In this document: positions 1-8,364 of the stretch, one piece after another
Layout: every line of letters starts with the position of its first letter
Position numbering within the stretch: position 1 is the stretch's first letter
Source: a virus
Taxonomy: Duplodnaviria; Heunggongvirae; Uroviricota; Caudoviricetes
DNA length: 8,364 nucleotides
IMG/VR virus record: IMGVR_UViG_2778261360_000001
Location: 1-8,364 of that record
Direction: 5' to 3' (one strand)
Program-made: the position numbers and the translations under genes
The notes under the pieces: generated by a model
What the model saw: the letters and a program-made list of their open reading frames with translations, nothing else
The model's database searches: none
What the model was told of the DNA's origin: nothing

Positions 1-56
1 GAAGCAGAAAAAGCTTATTATGCTTCCATCGGAAACGATGATCTGGCAGCCTGAGT

Positions 57-1064
57 TCACAGATAAAATACTCTCCAGGAAACCCGGGGCGGTTCAGTTT
101 CCAGAAGCGCATCAGTTTCACGGATTGGTACACCACGGAATGAAGTCCACCACTCGCCTTCAGTCTCTTTTACGCTGATAGCCAGAGATGTTTTCTCCAG
201 AGATTGCAGATCAAGAGCCTGGCCTACAGTGCGGTTCATGTAGAACACCGGGCGACCCATGCCACGGTTTGGAATGCGATGCAGTGCTTTAACCATCAAC
301 TTCGCAATATTTGCGGCAGAGGAAGGTTCTGAAAGATTGCTGACATCGATGTTTGCAATGCGAACAACATAACGCCAGTCACGCAGAGCAAGTCCGTTGT
401 CCCATTTGTAATGGGTACGGTAGCCTTCGTACTTGCCGCCATTAACATCTTCCAGTGTCACCTGGCCTTTATCTTCCATCTGGATGCCAGCCTTCTGCCC
501 TTTCGGGAAGATGCCATGCACGGTGTTTTCGCCCCACACCACTAACCAGATTGAGGTGTTATCTGTACCCGTGCCACCAGCATCAATGATGTTCTGAGCA
601 TTACCCGCAGACAGGCTGGAATAGCGGGAGGACAGTCCCATAAACTGCTGAGGGTTAACGCTGGAATCACCATAAAACAACGTCTGCGCCATCTGCTGAT
701 TCATCGCTTCAATAAATGCGCGGTCTTCAGACAGGCGGAATTCGGCGGTATTACCGTTCAGATCAGCCAGTGACTTATCGACTTCAGCATAGGTTTCCAG
801 CATTCCAACGGAATCGGTGACCTGCACTGTGGTTGATTTGCTTGGCTGTACGCCATAGTTCAGCAAACGCCAGGTGGCTGAAGGTAAACCAGAACGAATG
901 GTGGTTCGGTGTCCGGTAGGAAGGTTCCCTTCGACAAAAGGCATATCCTGAAGGATCGGGTTAGTTTGACCGAGAAGCTCGATAATCTTATCGACTTTCC
1001 CGTTTGGATCGACGCGCTTACCCCAGTCAGCCAGCGTTAGCGCAGTTAAGCCTTTAACAGCCAT
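57..1064 (-). CDS. Major capsid (coat) protein, about 335 aa. The start is probably the second ATG at 1064; the longest ORF starts at 1070.
   Basis: Long intact minus-strand ORF directly downstream of the scaffold-like gene, in the canonical portal-scaffold-capsid order. The SD-like AGAGGAA at 1071-1077 gives about 7 nt spacing to the ATG at 1064 but only 0-2 nt to the ATG at 1070. Size (about 37 kDa) fits a coat protein. Family not confirmed by search. Confidence 0.7.
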   Translation of the reverse strand: MAVKGLTALTLADWGKRVDPNGKVDKIIELLGQTNPILQDMPFVEGNLPTGHRTTIRSGLPSATWRLLNYGVQPSKSTTVQVTDSVGMLETYAEVDKSLADLNGNTAEFRLSEDRAFIEAMNQQMAQTLFYGDSSVNPQQFMGLSSRYSSLSAGNAQNIIDAGGTGTDNTSIWLVVWGENTVHGIFPKGQKAGIQMEDKGQVTLEDVNGGKYEGYRTHYKWDNGLALRDWRYVVRIANIDVSNLSEPSSAANIAKLMVKALHRIPNRGMGRPVFYMNRTVGQALDLQSLEKTSLAISVKETEGEWWTSFRGVPIRETDALLETEPPRVSWRVFYL

Positions 1065-1078
1065 TGTCATTTCCTCTC

Positions 1079-1774
1079 TTATTTGCCATAGAGCACTTCG
1101 GCCGCACTACGCTGGCCTTCATTACCACCGGTGACCATGCCATCTTCAGACATCGCCTTTCCGATTTTCACGAACGTTTTGACCAGATCAGGGTGATTAC
1201 CCAGCCCGGTGGTGTTCAGATATTCTTTGAGCTCAGGTGTCCCGAACTGGTCAAGCGCACGCTGTGCGGCGCTAAGGTTAGAAATCAACTTGTCGCCACC
1301 GATTTCTTTGTCAGCTTTTACATCCGCAGCCCACTGCTCGGTTGTTTTCTGCCAGGCTTCTGCCTGGCGCTGCTGAACACCTGCCAGAATCTTCGGATAA
1401 GCATCAACCAGCTTTTGCGCTTGCTCGTTGGTCAGGTTAAGTTCTCGCGCCACCGGCTCGAATTCCTTCAACGCTTCTGTATCCAGCTCTACGCCTTCGG
1501 CAGCCTGAAACTCGTACTTCTCAGGCGCACCCTCTGGTTTATTGCCGTCCTTTTTTTCATCCTGCTTATCGTTTTCAGGCTTTTTGTCATCAGCAGGTTT
1601 ATCGCCATCAGCAACAGGTTGTGGCTTATCACCTTCCTGTTGTGATGGATCACCAACTGGAGCAGGGTTATCACCTGCAGGCGCTGACGGTTCTGACGCA
1701 GCCGGAGCTGCTCCACCATCGACTGGTTGCTCATTGCAAAGACGGCGATACAGCAAACGCTCAAATAAATTCAT
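1079..1774 (-). CDS. Putative scaffolding protein, about 231 aa from the ATG at 1774. The listed ORF begins at a GTG at 1780 that overlaps the upstream stop.
   Basis: Acidic, Lys/Glu/Pro-rich low-complexity N-terminal half and a helical-looking C-terminal half, sitting between portal and capsid. AGGAG lies 5 nt upstream of the ATG at 1774 (minus-strand sequence CAGGAGTGATCATG). Confidence 0.6.
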   Translation of the reverse strand: MNLFERLLYRRLCNEQPVDGGAAPAASEPSAPAGDNPAPVGDPSQQEGDKPQPVADGDKPADDKKPENDKQDEKKDGNKPEGAPEKYEFQAAEGVELDTEALKEFEPVARELNLTNEQAQKLVDAYPKILAGVQQRQAEAWQKTTEQWAADVKADKEIGGDKLISNLSAAQRALDQFGTPELKEYLNTTGLGNHPDLVKTFVKIGKAMSEDGMVTGGNEGQRSAAEVLYGK

Positions 1775-1776
1775 GA

Positions 1777-2073
1777 TCACTCCTGTTCACTGGCCTCTTT
1801 GGCCATCTTCAAATACTGTTCAGGGCAATGCGCCATAACGCGCTGAAACAGTTCCAGCGCCAGATTGCGTTGCCCCTCATTAAATGCCATTGCCATAGCG
1901 TCCATCGGTGAGATAGCGGAAAACACACGGCCTTTCTCCAGCTCCGACCAGACAACGCGACGCCCCTGTTCACTGCTCATGACAAAGCGAATGTCATCAA
2001 TTTCACGCTGCGCCATGTCACGTTGCTTACGGGCGTTTTCTTCTTTCAGTTGATCGTCTTCGTAATCTGTCAT
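1777..2073 (-). CDS. Hypothetical head-assembly-associated protein, 98 aa
   Basis: ATG start overlaps the portal stop (ATGA) and its TGA stop overlaps the scaffold start region, so it is translationally coupled within the operon. No recognisable motif. Confidence 0.55.
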   Translation of the reverse strand: MTDYEDDQLKEENARKQRDMAQREIDDIRFVMSSEQGRRVVWSELEKGRVFSAISPMDAMAMAFNEGQRNLALELFQRVMAHCPEQYLKMAKEASEQE

Positions 2074-3503
2074 TGTGATTGCCCACCCTGACCACTAACT
2101 GCATTCGCCATAGCTGACAAAACACTCGGATCCGAAGTTTTAGCTTCGCTTAGCGTCTTGGCACCCTGTGCCGCCGCCATCCCCATCGCCATCATTTGTT
2201 GCTGCTGTTGCTGCTGTGCCCGTTGCTGGCGAGCCTGCTCAACCTGTTCCTGCGGAACAATGACGGTTGGAGACACTCCGGACATATCAGCGAATGCATC
2301 GATCGCCTGATCAACGTTGAGTTTGTCGAGAGCTTCTGGTTTCGCTTGCGCAAGTTGACCAATGAAGTTAACCGTGGACGCCAGACTGGACAGGCCGATA
2401 GACTTCTGAGCCTGAGCCATGACGGAAATGTATTCGACCTTCAGGGGCATGCCTTCCATCGCGTCAGGCGGTGGCGGCAACATGTTTTTACGCACCATCA
2501 TCGAGAAAGCGCGGTCAATGAGAGGATTAAGACATTCGTCGTTCAGACGCTCCAGAACCGGCCCCAACATCAGAAGTTTTTCTTCTTTCATTTCGATCAC
2601 CGCTTCAACAGGCATCGAGCGGGTATTGATGTTCTGCAACATCATGAACAGATCGACAAAGTAGGCGCTGTTAATGATTTGCCGAGTGTCCTGAATGTCT
2701 GCTACCAGATCTGCTGTACTGGGGTTAACCAGATAAGCAGGCCTGAAGCCATCCTGACCAGTAATCTGATCGATATACGTGATGTCGCCAGGAAGAAGGG
2801 AGGTGCGCTGATTCTTGAGGGAAGTCGGAGCAACCATCGGCGGATTGGTGGCTTTATCAATCAACTGCGACTTGCGCTTCTGGAGAAGCTGCAATGCCTT
2901 AACAGGTCCAAGCGCCAGCATACCCGGGCATGATGATCCATAAACATCTTCGCCGTTAACTTCCCAGCGCGGAGCCATAATTGGAAACTCATCGAATCCT
3001 GACTCACGCAACAACTTGTCGTTATCGCCACCAACCTCGTAATAAACCGATTTGAATGGCTTGTTCTTGCTATCCAGCTTCGATGTATCGCGGTCAATGT
3101 TCGGGTAAACCGAATGCATCACTTCAATCCACTTCTCGTAGGTACCTCTTTCCCACATGCTTTTTACGGATTCGCTGACGTTATTTAGCCCGAACTCCTG
3201 AACAAGCTGACGAACAGTCATAGAGAACTTGCGAAAACAGGTGTCCACACTGCCACGAGGTGAGTTAGCCAGGTAGTAACTGCCTATCGGGAATGGCATT
3301 GTGCGAATGATGTCCTCGTCATCCTCCAGTACCGCCATTGCACCGGTGCTGTATGTGCCGAGGCTTCCGTATAACTGCGGCAGCGACTGATAGAGATTCG
3401 ACTTATTGAACATATCGTTCATGCGGTTCTGCACCGCCTCAAGCCACAACTTAACAGGGCCATAATCCATCATTTCAGGATCTGGCGTAGCCAGCGAAAC
3501 CAC
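2070..3503 (-). CDS. Portal protein, C-terminal segment (frame B) of a frameshifted portal gene. The ORF-finder start is an internal GTG with no SD.
   Basis: 477-codon ORF immediately downstream of terminase and upstream of scaffold and capsid. Its reading frame is open upstream of the nominal GTG and overlaps the end of ORF 3470-3748 in another frame. Contains a poly-Gln tract near the C-terminus. Confidence 0.7.
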   Translation of the reverse strand: MVSLATPDPEMMDYGPVKLWLEAVQNRMNDMFNKSNLYQSLPQLYGSLGTYSTGAMAVLEDDEDIIRTMPFPIGSYYLANSPRGSVDTCFRKFSMTVRQLVQEFGLNNVSESVKSMWERGTYEKWIEVMHSVYPNIDRDTSKLDSKNKPFKSVYYEVGGDNDKLLRESGFDEFPIMAPRWEVNGEDVYGSSCPGMLALGPVKALQLLQKRKSQLIDKATNPPMVAPTSLKNQRTSLLPGDITYIDQITGQDGFRPAYLVNPSTADLVADIQDTRQIINSAYFVDLFMMLQNINTRSMPVEAVIEMKEEKLLMLGPVLERLNDECLNPLIDRAFSMMVRKNMLPPPPDAMEGMPLKVEYISVMAQAQKSIGLSSLASTVNFIGQLAQAKPEALDKLNVDQAIDAFADMSGVSPTVIVPQEQVEQARQQRAQQQQQQQMMAMGMAAAQGAKTLSEAKTSDPSVLSAMANAVSGQGGQSQ

Positions 3504-3748
3504 GGACGCGCGGGGCTTGTGATGCCTGACATCATGCCGCTGGCGAGAGTGCGCGCCGCCATAGTCCCGGTCGAATCAATAATGCGTGTATTGCGTCGAT
3601 CGTTACGGTTGACCTCAGAAGTCAGAAAGCGGGAACCACGCGGGTTGATGTAATCACTCAACTCGCGCCAGTGCGGCTCGAACGACTGACGCTCGCTTTC
3701 AAGTTGTGCGAACTGTTTGTTCAATCGCTCTTTAGTTGTTTCCGCCAT
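3470..3748 (-). CDS. Portal protein, N-terminal segment (frame A); probable 5' part of the same portal gene, interrupted by a frameshift near 3501-3515
   Basis: ATG at 3748 is preceded by GGAG with 8-nt spacing (CGGAGTCATTGAAATG on the minus strand). The ORF ends inside the open upstream frame of the 477-codon ORF. The two pieces together would give a portal of about 560 aa. Confidence 0.6.
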   Translation of the reverse strand: MAETTKERLNKQFAQLESERQSFEPHWRELSDYINPRGSRFLTSEVNRNDRRNTRIIDSTGTMAARTLASGMMSGITSPARPWFRWLRQILK

Positions 3749-3762
3749 TTCAATGACTCCGG

Positions 3763-3969
3763 TTACTGACCAAGCAGCGTTTTACCGCTGGTATTAGCGG
3801 TTGATGTGTCGCCCTGAGAACCGGTAAGCAGCGTAGAACTACGACCAGCAGCAGCGCGACGGCGACGTGTTTCTTCGTCGCGGGCATCAACAACGGCGGC
3901 ATCCTGCTCCTGTGGTGCTGCCTGAACTTCTGGTGTTGCAGGCACTGATGGTGAGCTACCCATGCACAT
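3763..3969 (-). CDS. Small hypothetical protein, 68 aa, Ala/Pro/Gln/Arg-rich and low complexity
   Basis: Its ATG is preceded by exactly the same 12-nt initiation cassette (CGGAGTCATTGA, then 1 nt, then ATG) as the portal N-terminal ORF. Position corresponds to the small gene often found between terminase and portal. Confidence 0.4.
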   Translation of the reverse strand: MCMGSSPSVPATPEVQAAPQEQDAAVVDARDEETRRRRAAAGRSSTLLTGSQGDTSTANTSGKTLLGQ

Positions 3970-4037
3970 ATCAATGACTCCGTACGCAATTAAATTATTA
4001 CCAATTTAACCACATATGATTTATTTATCGTAGATAG

Positions 4038-4066
4038 TTGACATTTAACGCACGAATCATTACCTT
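4038..4066 (+). promoter_or_regulatory. Candidate sigma70-type promoter: TTGACA (4038-4043), 17-bp spacer, TACCTT (4061-4066)
   Basis: Perfect -35 hexamer with a 17-bp spacer and a weak -10 (T1, A2, T6 conserved), in an AT-rich intergenic stretch upstream of the plus-strand leader and tRNA. Confidence 0.3.
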
Positions 4067-4396
4067 TCAGGTAAGCAAAGAGTTCATTCCGGTTATTAAC
4101 CTGACTGGCTTGTCGTTAAATTGAACAGGTGGAGTGAGCTTTTATTTTGAGCAGTACGGCGTATGGCACATGCGCCGATAGCGGTCTGGATACGTTTAAG
4201 GGGCACCCTCCCTTGCTCGAGCAAACGAACCAGGTAGCCGGAATGTGCAAGTCGAGCGGTTTTATTCCGCGCACGGGGATTCACCATCCCGGCGATTCGG
4301 TGTGACGCCTCGGAAGAGACGAGGGTACAACGATGAGAGCATTTATGGAGCCGCGACAAAGTGTGGCGCCTTAACAGGCTAAGTGCTCTCAGCGTT

Positions 4397-4473
4397 GTGG
4401 CATTAGCTCAGTTGGACAGAGCAACCGCCTTCTAAGCGGTTGGTCGCAGGTTCGAATCCTGCATGCCACGCCA
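4397..4473 (+). tRNA. tRNA-Arg, anticodon TCT (reads AGA), 77 nt with encoded CCA
   Basis: Hand-folded cloverleaf: 7-bp acceptor stem (GTGGCAT/ATGCCAC, all Watson-Crick), D-arm GCTC/GAGC with A20, anticodon stem ACCGC/GCGGT, loop CTTCTAA (U33, anticodon TCT, A37), T-arm GCAGG-TTCGAAT-CCTGC, discriminator G, CCA. Resembles host argU but has different acceptor and anticodon stems. Confidence 0.9.
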
Positions 4474-4516
4474 GAATCACGCCTAAGGACCGTGATGCCA
4501 GAAGTTCCAGGGGCTT

Positions 4517-4558
4517 GGCGGTGATGGTTTCCCTTGAAGGACTATCACCGCCCTTTTT
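4517..4558 (+). terminator. Putative intrinsic terminator downstream of the tRNA
   Basis: 9-bp stem GGCGGTGAT (4517-4525) pairing with ATCACCGCC (4544-4552), then C and TTTTT (4554-4558). The loop is large (18 nt). Confidence 0.45.
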
Positions 4559-4636
4559 ACAGCAGGACGCCATTGCGATGACTTCATGCTGTAAACCCGT
4601 ACAGCCACGGAAGGCATAACTCATTGCTTCCAGTTC

Positions 4637-4660
4637 GCCCGGTTCGCCGGGCATTTTTTT
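4637..4660 (+). terminator. Intrinsic terminator or attenuator immediately upstream of the RBS of the 123-aa gene
   Basis: 6-bp GC stem GCCCGG (4637-4642) pairing with CCGGGC (4647-4652) around a TTCG tetraloop, followed by A and TTTTTTT (4654-4660). The T-run runs straight into AAGGTGAGATT-ATG. Confidence 0.6.
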
Positions 4661-4671
4661 AAGGTGAGATT

Positions 4672-5043
4672 ATGAACGACCAGCAAATCGAAAAAGAAAT
4701 CGTTGAGAAAGGCAAAACTGCTCCGCGCGTTACGCCAGACCATATCGGAAGCATTATTGCTCAGGAGGCATATTTCACAGCAGAGGATGGTGCCTTTGGC
4801 AAAGCCATAAAAGCGAAACATACTGGCGGAGAGGTAAACTACCAGCCGCACGAATCACTTTCTCTGCTGACGTTCTGCGTCCTGGTGCTGCGCAACGGCT
4901 TCACCGTCACCGGAGAGAGTTCCTGTGCAAGCCCGGAAAACTTTGATGCAGAAATTGGTCGGAAGATTGCCCGACAGAATGCTGTAAACAAAATCTGGAT
5001 GCTTGAAGGTTACTTGCTGAAGCAGAAGTTAAGCGAGCAATAA
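4672..5043 (+). CDS. Conserved phage protein of unknown function, 123 aa; tentatively resembles the phage Gp49 (N4 gp49 / Sf6 gp66) family
   Basis: Only convincing plus-strand ORF. AAGGTGA SD lies 4-5 nt before the ATG, and it is flanked by terminators on both sides. Family assignment is from memory of the motif and is not verified. Confidence 0.7.
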   Translation: MNDQQIEKEIVEKGKTAPRVTPDHIGSIIAQEAYFTAEDGAFGKAIKAKHTGGEVNYQPHESLSLLTFCVLVLRNGFTVTGESSCASPENFDAEIGRKIARQNAVNKIWMLEGYLLKQKLSEQ

Positions 5044-5046
5044 CAC

Positions 5047-5060
5047 CGTGACATGTCACA
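5047..5060. repeat. 14-bp sequence CGTGACATGTCACA with a 12-bp perfect palindrome core (GTGACATGTCAC), copy 1
   Basis: Identical 14-mer also at 7312-7325. Lies just after the stop of the 123-aa gene and in the 3' flank of terminase large. Confidence 0.8.
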
Positions 5061-5063
5061 AAC

Positions 5064-5090
5064 AGCCAGCCTATGAGCTGGCTTTGTTTT
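5064..5090. terminator. Bidirectional intrinsic terminator between the convergent 123-aa gene and terminase large subunit
   Basis: 7-bp stem AGCCAGC (5064-5070) pairing with GCTGGCT (5077-5083), 6-nt loop, TTGTTTT on the plus side; AAAACAAA precedes the hairpin on the minus-strand transcript and a GTTTGTG tract follows it. Confidence 0.6.
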
Positions 5091-5133
5091 ATCCTCACCA
5101 GAGGATATCAACGACATTATCCCCACCAGAGGA

Positions 5134-6609
5134 TTAAGCATAGGGATCGTAATCTGTGATGGCCTTGCCTTGCTGGTTCTGCTGCCCGGGAATTCGCAGA
5201 CGCTTCGACACAGGGAACGCAAACGTCAGCAGTAGCGCATCGCCTTTACCAGGAGAACGCCCAAGCCGCTCTTTGATATCTTCCTTCGGTTCGATAACGA
5301 TTTTACCGTCCACTCGAACTTTGTACTCTGCCGCCGACAGGTCGTCCGCTGTTTCCTGGTCATCCAGCATGCCGCCGAGCCTCAGCCATGTCTTGCATGC
5401 ATTGAACATCTCCCCACGCTTGTTAAGCATCTGCGGGTCAGTGGACGCACCGCCGAACGGAACAAGTTGCCATGTACGACCCCAGCCGTCACCGATTGAC
5501 TTCAGACCGGTACCGTAACCAAAGTCGATGAACACTGCGTCAGCCTGATACTGGTCTTCAAAGTCAGCGATACGCTTCGCCATAATCAGATCGTCGGTGG
5601 TCTTGTTACCAGTCCATAGCACCTTACTGTGCAGCCCCTGCCGCAGGTATATCACAGCGTCATCAACGCCGGAGTATGCCGGGTCAACGCCGATTATCAC
5701 CGGAGCATGTGCAACCTGCGCAGCGGTTACCACCCGTTTCATTGCCTCGTCAGTAAGGCCGGTAGGGATAAACTGCAATTCAGATGCATCCGGGAATATG
5801 CCGCGCACACGGATTTTAACGAAGTCGCTGTCTTCCCCGTAGTCATCAACCCATTTCTGCAACTGCTGTTTGTTAGTGCCTTCCACCGTCCGGCTGTCAA
5901 TCTGCGCAGTTTTCCAGCGGTGTTTATATTTGCGGAAACATTCGCGAAAACGCCCGGTGTTACGTGTAGGGTTTCCGAACGCCACCCAGATGATTTCGGT
6001 GTCTTCGTCCGTCAGCGCACCCTCTGCTACCTCCCACACCAGATCGGCAATGTTCGACGCTTCATCGAATACCACGATGATGCGTTTGCGCTCGTTGTGT
6101 AGTCCGGCGAATGCCTCAGTGTTGTGCTCAGACCAGGGGATTGCGTCAGCTCGCCACCGCTTGTCATGCCCAGGGTCATTGCTGTACATCGCGGTAGCAG
6201 TACAGGTAAACCAGTATTTCGTGATAGCAAGGTTCGACCACTTGATAATTTCCGGCCAGGTCTTCGTTCGTAGCTGGTTGTCGGTGTTGGCGGTCACCAC
6301 GACCTTACAATCCTCGCAAGTGGACATGCCCCAGTTGATCAGCATTGAGATGAATGCGGATTTACCAATACCGTGACCCGAAGCACGTGCCAGCATAAGC
6401 GGCTGATAGCGCGTCTCTGGATTCTGCAGGTGATCACGTATCTCTCGGAACGCATCAGCCTGCCACTTACGTGGACCGGTGGCATGTGCTAATTCAGTCC
6501 CCTCTTCCCCCCACGGGAACGCATAGAGGGCATAGCCAAGCGGATCGTGAGTGAACCCTGCAATATCCTCGATCAACTGCTCTTCAGGAGATAACGCTGT
6601 ATCTGTCAC
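5134..6609 (-). CDS. Terminase large subunit, 491 aa, GTG start overlapping the terminase small stop (GTGA)
   Basis: P-loop-like motif (ASGHGIGKS) in the N-terminal ATPase region, acidic-residue-rich C-terminal half consistent with a nuclease domain, size, and translational coupling to the upstream small-subunit gene. AGGA lies about 9 nt upstream of the GTG. Confidence 0.88.
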   Translation of the reverse strand: MTDTALSPEEQLIEDIAGFTHDPLGYALYAFPWGEEGTELAHATGPRKWQADAFREIRDHLQNPETRYQPLMLARASGHGIGKSAFISMLINWGMSTCEDCKVVVTANTDNQLRTKTWPEIIKWSNLAITKYWFTCTATAMYSNDPGHDKRWRADAIPWSEHNTEAFAGLHNERKRIIVVFDEASNIADLVWEVAEGALTDEDTEIIWVAFGNPTRNTGRFRECFRKYKHRWKTAQIDSRTVEGTNKQQLQKWVDDYGEDSDFVKIRVRGIFPDASELQFIPTGLTDEAMKRVVTAAQVAHAPVIIGVDPAYSGVDDAVIYLRQGLHSKVLWTGNKTTDDLIMAKRIADFEDQYQADAVFIDFGYGTGLKSIGDGWGRTWQLVPFGGASTDPQMLNKRGEMFNACKTWLRLGGMLDDQETADDLSAAEYKVRVDGKIVIEPKEDIKERLGRSPGKGDALLLTFAFPVSKRLRIPGQQNQQGKAITDYDPYA

Positions 6610-7202
6610 TGATTACCATCCTGACGTTCTTTGAGTCGCTTCCTGGCTGCTGCTATGCGATCAGCAATTGTCACATTCACATTAACATCCAGACGTTCTT
6701 TGAACGCGTTGACATCAACATGCTTACCAATCATCTCAAGGTTCTTCACCTTGTCAGGCCATTTAATTTTTTTGAGGATTGTCTCTATCGAATCCTCGTT
6801 CATGTTCATGATGGTCGATGACAGATCAAAGCCACTAAGCGTAGTGCGCCAGATTTTCGGCCACTCACGGATTGGTTTAAGGCTCCCATCGTCGTTGAGG
6901 ATGTCGATCACGTCCATCTGGTCGATCTCCACCAGGCGCATGAGAACGTAATCAGCACTGACGCGCATTCGTTTGTTGCGCTCCTCCATCAACTCGGCAA
7001 TCCGTTTTTGAATGCGTTCATCGCGCATCATGACACTGGCTTTAACTGCCGCTGTATTTGGGGAGAATCCTGCGTTAATCGCTGCCTGAGTCTGGTTTTC
7101 AGGCGTTTTGATGTATGACTGGCAATAAGCCTCCTGCATTGCTGTTAGTGGCTTAAATTGCGTTGATTTGCGTTTATAGGTTTTATGTTCAGCAGGCATC
7201 AT
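6606..7202 (-). CDS. Terminase small subunit, about 198 aa. Start is at the ATG-ATG pair at 7202/7199; the ORF-finder extension to 7280 uses a TTG and runs through a terminator hairpin.
   Basis: N-terminal region (KPLTAMQEAYCQSYIKTPENQTQAAINAGFSPNTAAVKA...) matches the helix-turn-helix N-terminus typical of phage small terminase subunits. Lies immediately upstream of, and overlaps, the terminase large gene. Confidence 0.8.
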   Translation of the reverse strand: MMPAEHKTYKRKSTQFKPLTAMQEAYCQSYIKTPENQTQAAINAGFSPNTAAVKASVMMRDERIQKRIAELMEERNKRMRVSADYVLMRLVEIDQMDVIDILNDDGSLKPIREWPKIWRTTLSGFDLSSTIMNMNEDSIETILKKIKWPDKVKNLEMIGKHVDVNAFKERLDVNVNVTIADRIAAARKRLKERQDGNQ

Positions 7203-7209
7203 AACCACC

Positions 7210-7238
7210 GTGGTAATAGTTACCGTTGTGGTAATAGT
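7210..7238. repeat. Two exact 11-bp direct repeats, GTGGTAATAGT at 7210-7220 and 7228-7238, each followed by (T)ACC, directly upstream of the terminase small start
   Basis: Read directly from the sequence; 18-bp periodicity. On the minus strand the unit is ACTATTACCAC, repeated twice. Confidence 0.8.
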
Positions 7239-7243
7239 ACCAT

Positions 7244-7271
7244 GCAAAATAAAGCCGCCATAGTTGGCGGC
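7244..7271 (-). terminator. Intrinsic terminator on the minus strand between the small upstream genes and terminase small
   Basis: 7-bp stem GCCGCCA/TGGCGGC with a 4-nt loop (7254-7271), followed on the minus-strand transcript by UUUAUUUUG (plus-strand 7244-7253 is GCAAAATAAA). Confidence 0.6.
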
Positions 7272-7311
7272 AGTATTCAAAACCCATCAAATTCATCATG
7301 CATAATCTACT

Positions 7312-7325
7312 CGTGACATGTCACA
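7312..7325. repeat. 14-bp sequence CGTGACATGTCACA (12-bp perfect palindrome core), copy 2; overlaps the stop codon of the RHH-like ORF
   Basis: Identical to 5047-5060. Confidence 0.8.
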
Positions 7326-7659
7326 CTATTAATTTCGTTTCATGCCAGCCTTTGGTCACCCAGCATTGCGAGTCACCATTACACGGGCATGAATTCACAG
7401 GAACTCTCTCGCCGCACTTACCGCAACGTTTTCTGCTGATCGATTTTATACGCCCGCGCACGCGTGCATCATCCTGGCGGATCAGCAGCGCGATGTACTC
7501 GGCCATTTCATAGGGATCGCGACCAGGGCGCCGGGCGGCGCAGTTCCGCGCCAGCATTTCCTGCTCCTGCTTATCCAGCACCAGTTCAATTTTGCGCTCA
7601 CCGGCGGCGGACTGCCGAGCGCGCTGCGCGGCTTTGCGTTCTGCGGGGGATTTAGCCAC
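7321..7659 (-). CDS. Putative small DNA-binding protein, about 112 aa: ribbon-helix-helix-like N-terminus and Cys-rich (zinc-ribbon-like) C-terminus. GTG start at 7659 or 7668.
   Basis: An RKIELVLD strand-like segment followed by a helix fits the RHH pattern; C-terminal CGKCG...CPC...C cluster. No ATG until codon 38 of the longest ORF. GGAG lies 8 nt upstream of the GTG at 7659. The start region overlaps the end of the 40-aa peptide ORF. Confidence 0.5.
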   Translation of the reverse strand: MAKSPAERKAAQRARQSAAGERKIELVLDKQEQEMLARNCAARRPGRDPYEMAEYIALLIRQDDARVRGRIKSISRKRCGKCGERVPVNSCPCNGDSQCWVTKGWHETKLIV

Positions 7660-7774
7660 GAATCGCACTCCACGCCAGATTGATTAATGACTCCCAGGCA
7701 ATATAAACCCGGATACCAGCAGCCAGGCCGAAACCAATCACCATGGCATAAAGCAGAGCGTTGCACTTGTTCAT
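7652..7774 (-). CDS. Small hydrophobic membrane peptide, 40 aa (MNKCNALLYAMVIGFGLAAGIRVYIAWESLINLAWSAIRG); not in the supplied ORF track
   Basis: ATG at 7774 overlaps the TAA stop of the DUF551-like gene (TAATG) and is preceded by a strong SD (AGGAGGTGAAGTA-ATG). One predicted transmembrane segment. Hand-translated from the sequence. Confidence 0.5.
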   Translation of the reverse strand: MNKCNALLYAMVIGFGLAAGIRVYIAWESLINLAWSAIRG

Positions 7775-8079
7775 TACTTCACCTCCTGTTTCGGCACTGC
7801 TGGCATTTCACGCCAGTGCGTAACTGAGTGCGGATCCGGATATTCGGTGCCATCATCCCAGCGATTGCCATTCCACATTGCAGACCACATCTCACCGTCT
7901 TCATACATGACCATTACCGGAATTAACTTATCTGGCATCTGCTCACTACAGCTTATCCAACCATCCTTAATGCAATTACCTTGACTCTGAAGCATAGCGG
8001 CACGACAGGCGTTCCAGCCTCTCACCTCTGCAATAGCGGCAACAGCATCGACCGCGTACATTTTAAGAGGGTTAGGCAT
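7774..8079 (-). CDS. DUF551-like phage protein, 101 aa
   Basis: C-terminal segment W-x(n)-P-x(n)-VTHWREMPAVP resembles the conserved C-terminal motif of the DUF551 family common in lambdoid early regions. Weak SD. Recognised by eye. Confidence 0.6.
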   Translation of the reverse strand: MPNPLKMYAVDAVAAIAEVRGWNACRAAMLQSQGNCIKDGWISCSEQMPDKLIPVMVMYEDGEMWSAMWNGNRWDDGTEYPDPHSVTHWREMPAVPKQEVK

Positions 8080-8148
8080 TGGTTTTTCTTCAGGTACTAC
8101 TGGAATGGGTGGGGCGGCGTAGACCTCAATAATTCCATTATCAATAGG

Positions 8149-8364
8149 TCATTCTCCATCCTTGAGGTAGTCACTTGTGCCGTCAACTTGCTGTTCTGCA
8201 ATGTGGAATGCACCTATTGGTTTTGCTTCCAGCGATGCCAGAGCAATTCGTGCCAGTTCTTCCGCTTCTTCTGCTGGCAGTACAACGTTGCTACCAGGTC
8301 CGTATGTTTCGCGCCACTGCTTGATTGTCAGCAGTCGCCCTTTGGTAATAGTGATCATGCCGCG
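8149..8364 (-). CDS. Hypothetical protein, 5'-partial at the window edge; the frame is still open at 8364
   Basis: ORF in the same frame as the DUF551-like gene, separated from it by a single TGA (8149-8151) and 23 sense codons. The ATG at 8358 may be internal. Confidence 0.4.
   Translation of the reverse strand, partial: RGMITITKGRLLTIKQWRETYGPGSNVVLPAEEAEELARIALASLEAKPIGAFHIAEQQVDGTSDYLKDGE

Follow-up and report, generated by a model that had tools for sequence, protein, structure and literature searches.

The stretch of DNA analysed here, referred to as the window, covers positions 1 to 8,364 of the IMG/VR virus record IMGVR_UViG_2778261360_000001 (8,364 nucleotides, nt). On the basis of its sequence it is classified as an epsilon15/phiV10-type prophage (genus Uetakevirus) from E. 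coli, and its nearest matches include the phages EC.W1-9 and phiv142-3 as well as many E. coli chromosomes. This report deals with a small gene on its minus strand, which encodes a peptide of 40 amino acids (aa) with one predicted transmembrane helix. A sequence-only reading of the window had pointed out this open reading frame (ORF) as an unlisted gene, joined to the preceding gene by a TAATG stop-start overlap and overlapping the start region of the following gene; all these elements are present on the minus strand:

7774..7652, minus strand: coding sequence of the 40-aa peptide, ATG at 7774..7772 and TAA at 7654..7652; product MNKCNALLYAMVIGFGLAAGIRVYIAWESLINLAWSAIRG
7787..7779, minus strand: Shine-Dalgarno (SD) sequence AGGAGGTGA, 7 nt 5' of the peptide ATG
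7776..7774, minus strand: stop codon TAA of the upstream gene, with one base common to the peptide ATG (TAATG)
7694..7756, minus strand: predicted transmembrane helix LLYAMVIGFGLAAGIRVYIAW, codons 7-27, the most hydrophobic 21-residue stretch
7715..7735, minus strand: GFGLAAG core, codons 14-20, from alignments including the distant members P0167-P0172
7652..7693, minus strand: amphipathic C-terminal tail ESLINLAWSAIRG, codons 28-40, which also holds the weak SD and the start of the next gene

The SD had been ranked among the strongest in the window, and it in fact exceeds those of all other gene starts tested: pairing with the 16S tail is predicted at -11.6 kcal/mol (next best, -8.4), and AGGAGGT occurs a single time across both strands of the window, namely at this site. 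Our comparison set comprised 70 related loci, of which 4 came from species-representative genomes and 66 from viral contigs of IMG/VR, and in 67 of them the SD reaches -8 kcal/mol or lower. No sequestration of the SD of the peptide gene was seen. Adding the window and SJ46, a P1-like phage of Salmonella, gives 72 scored contexts; the upstream stop and the peptide start overlap in 70 of these, namely by 1 nt in 62 and by either 4 or 8 nt in the other 8. The upstream neighbours in these contexts belong to 45 different protein clusters, mostly DUF551-type proteins ending in ...PLPEPPQEVK, and in the window AGGAGGTGA is embedded in the final codons (QEVK) of the upstream gene. Hence, with the C-terminus ...PQEVK being conserved in the preceding DUF551-type proteins, the SD of the peptide gene is encoded by the end of the gene before it.

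At its 3' end the peptide gene overlaps the next gene by 8 nt if the latter starts at GTG 7659, or by 17 nt if it starts at GTG 7668. The former is favoured, because it gives the 112-aa length found in more than 100 homologues, and it is also the choice of RefSeq; its SD estimate is -5.9 kcal/mol, from a weak GGAG within peptide codons 35-36. A promoter-pattern scan found no promoter-like site directly 5' of the peptide gene, nor antisense to it, and an Rfam scan of 7300-8364 gave no match. The G+C fraction is 0.496 in the peptide gene, 0.50 in the adjacent upstream gene and 0.514 in the window. The gene does not have the appearance of a moron, as promoter or terminator patterns flanking it were not found in the scan and it overlaps both neighbours.

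Selection on the frame and the predicted helix

It is highly probable that the 40-codon frame is a genuine gene for a membrane peptide, with the membrane location as a prediction. Conservation and the ratio of nonsynonymous to synonymous change (dN/dS) across related prophages had been proposed as the check, with loss of the frame as the outcome that would speak against a gene. The frame is open in 70 of 70 related loci, and its length is fixed at 40 aa, or at 45 aa in one subfamily. The loci together with the window and SJ46 comprise 28 distinct nucleotide sequences, among which each of the other five frames contains stops in 18 to 28, and all three antisense frames in 27-28. The dN/dS ratio according to Nei-Gojobori is 0.17 in the 40-aa class (210 pairs) and 0.135 in the 45-aa class, and variable sites are distributed 24/15/35 over codon positions 1/2/3. 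In our opinion, the most telling evidence for a gene is the homologue gp090 of SJ46 (YP_009293547.1), which has likewise 40 aa and shares 53% identity over 36 residues (tblastn) with DNA that is only 57% identical. It overlaps neither of its neighbours, which are unrelated to those in the window and separated by spacers on both sides, and a homologue of this type is also present in the E. coli phage vB_EcoM-813R1.

Furthermore, the proportion of synonymous differences (pS) is 0.48 and 0.37 in the two gene halves, with dN/dS of 0.18 and 0.15. Synonymous change is thus plentiful in both halves, so that it is the protein that is constrained rather than an element in the RNA or DNA; a constraint acting on the RNA of the 3' half was considered and ruled out, because synonymous change there nearly matches that in the 5' half. 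The overlaps with both neighbours, the breakpoints near codon 20/21 described below and the survival of the 3' half alone in some prophages would also suit a peptide without function, whose ORF is kept as a translational bridge or leader for the next gene, a homologue of phiV10 p55, or as a DNA junction between mosaic modules. However, selection at the amino-acid level acts on both halves, homologues without p55 and stand-alone homologues exist, and the length is constant at 40 or 45 aa. The functionless peptide is largely refuted by the selection and the p55-less copies, and we give it hardly any credit.

The single hydrophobic helix claimed before is well founded. Residues 7-27 reach -6.7 kcal/mol on the Wimley-White octanol scale with a mean Kyte-Doolittle value of 1.7, and AlphaFold2 (20-sequence alignment) returns one helix comprising residues 3-39 with a predicted local distance difference test (pLDDT) score of 91.7. 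The model thus describes a single-pass membrane protein with one spanning helix of approximately 20 residues. Tyr9 at one helix end and Tyr24/Trp27 at the other are spaced like interfacial belts. A fold search of the model against viral structures returned nothing. Across the window, 45-aa and SJ46 types and the distant P0170, invariant or nearly invariant positions are M1, K3, L7, Y/F9, G14, F15, G16, A/G19, G20, a polar R/H/Q at 22, Y/F24 and W27. The three glycines G14, G16 and G20 are invariant in all members seen, F15 is found in nearly all, and A19 in all but P0170, which has G at this position. The resulting GFGxxAG motif is present in nearly all members and offers two small-residue faces, G16xxxG20 and G14xxxA18. 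The transmembrane segment is the best-conserved part across the subfamilies and the tail varies; the final 12 residues have a helical hydrophobic moment of 0.57, and Trp35 is retained even in copies without the downstream gene. Slightly more basic residues after the helix than before it weakly favour an N-out/C-in orientation. With regard to a lipobox, Cys4 is too near the N-terminus, and relatives have S, V or I at this position.

The N-terminal half has features of an export signal as well. The first 20 residues could be a cleavable Sec signal that releases an amphipathic peptide of 20-25 residues (IRVYIAWESLINLAWSAIRG), which would act in the periplasm or outside the cell. The n-h-c layout with MNK, a 12-residue hydrophobic core and glycines at -6 and -4 agrees with this idea, as do the AxG-type -3/-1 pattern before Ile21, whose small residues (A/V/T/S18 and G20) are kept in every subfamily, and the strongly amphipathic C-terminal half. 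But, the supposed signal is the best-conserved part of the peptide, contrary to the usual situation in signal peptides, AlphaFold2 predicts one unbroken helix, and the tyrosine and tryptophan residues have the belt-like spacing mentioned above. Moreover, a basic residue (Arg or His) at +2 is unfavourable for Sec export in E. coli, and Arg at +2, together with the conservation, counts against cleavage here. A processed peptide is considered most improbable.

Family, catalogue status and distribution

The peptide matches PHROG 5525, a family labelled as of unknown function, with E 7e-30 and 103.5 bits, residues 1-40 aligning to profile positions 1-40 of 40. The RefSeq protein WP_282915948.1 is this gene; the exact protein is labelled 'MULTISPECIES: hypothetical protein [Enterobacteriaceae]' and occurs on at least 1000 contigs. 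It is also annotated in GenBank phage records, namely in EC.W1-9 (WYA78225.1) and as Orf32 of phiv142-3 (QGF19637.1, 100% identical to the window peptide), and SJ46 gp090 is a member of the PHROG family. The designation as unlisted is correct for the ORF track of the sequence-only reading only, and the gene is already catalogued publicly and not new as a gene. The main value of the present analysis is one of annotation: as a real gene, the ORF deserves to be retained in gene lists despite falling under common length cut-offs. In biological terms, the accessory set carried by temperate enterobacterial phages gains one more conserved, small membrane protein.

According to megablast, the peptide gene is present in 195 of 5426 complete E. 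coli genomes (approximately 3.6%, or 1 in 28), in 160 of them at full length. The family consists of 45 protein clusters at 90% identity, with hosts among Escherichia, Salmonella, Klebsiella, Citrobacter, Enterobacter, Pseudescherichia and Pantoea. When 1.84 billion representative proteins were searched exhaustively with a profile, only 19 matched, and these are family members, truncated or frameshifted variants, chimeras and 2 long proteins matched over multiple short stretches; no informative distant relative was among them, and cluster and profile searches found no non-phage relatives. With members of 40-45 aa, PHROG 5525 is a narrow family that occurs only in temperate phages and prophages of Enterobacterales. 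Scans of Pfam, NCBIfam and PADLOC with the peptide and two divergent relatives resulted in sub-threshold matches only, and DUF2109 (Pfam, 14.8 bits at a cut-off of 23.1), YnhF/CydH (NCBIfam, 12-14 bits at a cut-off of 30) and GspN were rejected as hydrophobic noise. The papers on phiV10/epsilon15 and on vB_EcoP_ZX5 do not mention the peptide gene, and the prophage-associated small proteins SMP3 and SMP7 of the CFT073 ribosome-profiling (Ribo-seq) preprint, which we considered, are other genes. One public source names a 40-aa SJ46-type homologue (P0190) 'membrane protein insertase Oxa1/YidC/SpoIIIJ'. The name is evidently an error of automatic annotation and could spread to other records.

Recombination breakpoints recur in the middle of the gene, at approximately 7713-7725 (codons 17-21), as seen in the related loci L076 (4001-4100) and L077 (3001-3061) and in the proteins P0040-P0045. 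The sequence ...(AG)IRVYI[AT]WESLINLAWSAIRG is joined to at least five N-termini that are unrelated to one another, and approximately 35 E. coli genomes hold either only nt 60-123 of the gene, some with the first 36 nt of p55 in addition, or only nt 1-61. In L077 the junction corresponds to a deletion reaching the 3' end of terL, which a 6-nt microhomology with terL (CTGGTA) accounts for.

The surrounding operon

The order on the minus strand is Ea22-like/DUF551 gene, 40-aa gene, p55 homologue, terminator-like hairpin, terS and terL; beyond terL follow a divergent gene of the N4-gp49/Sf6-gp66 family and a tRNA-Arg gene, then the portal and head genes. The features outside the peptide gene are:

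8358..7774, minus strand: Ea22-like/DUF551 gene as one frame (single-frame translation), approximately 194 aa, Pfam DUF551 with E 2.6e-16
7659..7321, minus strand: 112-aa gene, homologue of phiV10 p55 and epsilon15 gp49, GTG at 7659, overlapping the peptide gene by 8 nt (GTGGCTAA)
7313-7324: perfect 12-base-pair palindrome GTGACATGTCAC, overlapping the p55 stop codon
7271..7254, minus strand: terminator-like GC hairpin with T-run, a pattern match of the consensus scan, 50 nt past the p55 stop
4672-5043, plus strand: gene of the N4-gp49/Sf6-gp66 family beside the tRNA-Arg, divergent from its minus-strand surroundings
4397-4473, plus strand: tRNA-Arg (anticodon TCT, reads AGA) between terL and the portal gene

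In the window the peptide gene is the penultimate gene of an early accessory operon and lies outside any lysis cassette. Across the family the gene is accessory and optional, and takes the final or penultimate place among overlapping early genes of the 'ea/nin type'. Its contexts are Uetakevirus, lambdoid, integrase-proximal and P1-like; in other phages it adjoins nin or integrase modules, and in phiV10 itself it is absent. A holin-like role, which had been suggested among others, is unlikely from this position, as the gene lies between the Ea22/DUF551 gene and p55 where the early operon ends, upstream of terS/terL, which is not the place of a holin or pinholin. The hairpin at 7271..7254 is likely the end of the early operon that holds the peptide gene; phiV10 has an annotated terminator after p55.

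The upstream gene is interrupted in the window. An in-frame TGA at 8151..8149 splits it into the listed ORFs of 69 aa (8358..8149) and 101 aa (8079..7774), and the 101-aa 'DUF551-like gene' of the sequence-only reading is hence the C-terminal part of an interrupted protein of approximately 194 aa. The nearest relative, locus L024 (IMG/VR UViG_2675903650_000004), is 100% identical to the window in p55, terS and terL and has TGG (Trp) at this codon, and the TGA is either a nonsense mutation or a sequencing error. It lies 375 nt upstream of the peptide start, so that ribosomes on the upstream gene would halt this far before it, and the internal ATG 8079 is nearly without SD (-1.0 kcal/mol). Translational coupling to the upstream gene, as claimed before, fits the normal architecture of the family, but it is doubtful in this window, where translation of the peptide would rely on its own SD.

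The downstream gene had been called ribbon-helix-helix (RHH)-like, for which we found no confirmation. Sequence searches of this p55 homologue against Pfam, NCBIfam and PDB gave no match, the AlphaFold2 model (pLDDT 69.5; helices 5-18, 30-43 and 52-75) has its best Foldseek match at E = 3 and no significant one, and the only label is 'transcriptional regulator' from PHROG 536. The protein has a basic N-terminus, an invariant C79xxC82...C91PC93 and a nearly invariant C99, a cysteine pattern that is suggestive of zinc binding. Genes for p55 are very widespread in prophages and always the last of the early operon.

The close arrangement raises the question whether peptide and p55 form a two-gene module, in which the peptide tethers or sequesters p55, is countered by it, or sets its translation via the 8-nt overlap. 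A p55 homologue follows the peptide gene with exactly this overlap in 56 of the 70 loci, including integrase-proximal elements of the 45-aa subfamily in a different phage, in which p55 is only 61-69% identical and no terminase gene follows it; furthermore, the weak SD of p55 lies within the peptide gene. On the other hand, p55 without the peptide is far commoner than with it (786 clusters vs 45 for the peptide; at least 636 of the 5426 complete E. coli genomes, i.e. at least 12%, vs 195), and phiV10 p55 overlaps an unrelated ASCH gene by the identical 8 nt. The peptide also persists intact without p55 in at least five contexts, including the lambdoid nin-region and int-proximal positions, and in SJ46, with dN/dS of 0.22 among the copies without p55. 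Several of these copies carry a remnant of approximately 36 nt of the p55 5' end, so that common ancestry, together with the physical overlap, seems to account for the linkage. An obligate pair is argued against by the greater frequency of p55, the phiV10 arrangement and the persistence of p55-less copies, and we regard a module of this kind as improbable. Still somewhat less credible is a co-diverged functional pair acting as a membrane-anchored switch, in which the peptide would control, or report the membrane state to, p55 as a small zinc-binding, DNA-binding protein, or, as a variant, would be processed into a signal for the regulator.

Some further observations concern the region behind p55 and related elements. 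The hairpin at 7254-7271 falls inside the 224-aa terS ORF (6606-7280, listed from TTG 7280). Phage EC.W1-9 annotates a TerS of 197 aa, and the long terS start used in some records is probably over-extended. The sole minus-strand promoter-like match in this region (7324..7295) begins within the palindrome GTGACATGTCAC, which may function as an operator or as a site between early and late operons. In the IMG/VR contigs of loci L070-L075 (2800-5900), the 45-aa variant and p55 close an operon with ASCH-like and small DNA methyltransferase-like proteins, directly followed by an AlpA/Xis-like gene and a convergent integrase gene, on a backbone that differs from Uetakevirus and has relatives in Pantoea.

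Possible functions and comparison with known small membrane proteins

The functions suggested by the sequence-only reading (holin-like protein, toxin, superinfection-exclusion factor or membrane-protein modulator) are a generic menu. Our best explanation as a whole is a selected, 40-residue, single-helix accessory membrane protein that modulates a membrane component, for which we estimate a probability of roughly 0.4. The peptide would be made when the early operon is transcribed, i.e. after induction or infection, and would insert in the inner membrane, probably N-out/C-in. It would act via its small-residue GFGxxAG packing faces, by which it could bind and modulate an integral inner-membrane protein or complex of the host or the DNA-entry apparatus of an incoming phage. 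By analogy with known small proteins such as D3 Iap, HK97 gp15, AcrZ, MgtS and MgrB (PMC3594210, PMC4815439, PMC12648545), modulation of an inner-membrane protein or complex may be the most likely mechanism, although this is a tentative guess; generic membrane damage is less likely. A specific rather than a generic helix is indicated by the hydrophobic segment with the invariant K3, L7, G14, G16, G20 and W27 and the polar residue 22, which shows stronger conservation across the subfamilies than the tail.

Several points weigh against this explanation. No partner protein is known or predicted for the peptide, and the Gly-rich helix suits self-association with pore formation equally well as partner binding. 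The topology is ambiguous, with K3 on one side vs R22, R39 and E28 on the other. The nonsense codon in the upstream gene may lower expression of the peptide in this window through polarity. A literature search for the peptide sequence or the PHROG identifier found no paper. Finally, there is no promoter-like site directly upstream, and hence expression from a repressed prophage, which a classical exclusion or lysogenic-conversion role would need, is not supported; PADLOC gave no match for superinfection exclusion either.

Self-association is central to the other mechanism that has to be considered, namely a membrane-damaging peptide similar to kil, type I toxins or pinholins, which would associate by its Gly face, form a leak at the polar residue 22 and depolarise the inner membrane, or make it permeable, in lytic growth. 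The size and single helix resemble type I toxins, which usually have less than 60 aa and one transmembrane helix (PMC12648545). GxxxG-type faces, the conserved R/H/Q within the helix and the very strong SD would be in line with such an activity as well. However, the gene has neither its own promoter nor an antisense RNA, Rfam match or sequestered SD, it is co-translated in an operon with ordinary accessory genes outside the lysis cassette, and it persists in many apparently intact prophages. TisB, DinQ and ZorO are rich in Leu/Ile and have a charged stripe, which is not the case here. A type I toxin-antitoxin system in the sense of a stand-alone unit with an antisense RNA was rejected, as the gene is embedded between two overlapping genes, and we consider the membrane-damaging peptide in general as unlikely, albeit the most serious rival to a modulator.

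Comparison with the toxins TisB, HokB and DinQ leads to a similar picture: these are small single-helix inner-membrane peptides, some of them prophage-borne, like the peptide discussed here, but they combine a promoter of their own with an antisense RNA as antitoxin and with translational locking (PMC12648545), and no such feature was seen for the peptide gene. The superinfection-exclusion protein gp15 of phage HK97 is encoded by a moron, belongs to the YebO family and acts on phage genome entry (PMC3594210). In contrast to the peptide gene, which has no promoter-like site of its own and no non-phage relatives, gp15 is transcribed as an independent unit while the prophage is repressed, and YebO homologues of it occur on chromosomes.

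If the peptide targets a host membrane complex or blocks phage entry, which from the sequence is at most a reasonable guess, it would provide a compact tool and a new example of membrane interference between phage and host. For the kind of mechanism, the Iap peptide of Pseudomonas phage D3 can be compared, an alpha-polymerase inhibitor which acts in the inner membrane on the host membrane proteins Wzy/Wzz (PMC3594210; PMC4815439, citing Taylor et al. 2013). No sequence similarity between the peptide and Iap was detected. Iap is encoded together with wzy-beta and oac in a moron for serotype conversion and is expressed in lysogens, whereas the peptide gene is located in an early operon without such partners; both are very small hydrophobic peptides of temperate phages, and the mechanism proposed here is of the same kind. 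Among bacterial proteins, the regulators AcrZ, MgtS, MgrB and PmrR (PMC12648545) are of the same size class (49 aa for AcrZ and 31 aa for MgtS; CFT073 Ribo-seq preprint), have a single transmembrane helix and bind larger membrane proteins, but they are encoded by chromosomal, stress-regulated genes and have no sequence relationship to the peptide family. The peptide of the window belongs, as an ordinary representative, to the many small membrane proteins that phages carry as accessory functions.

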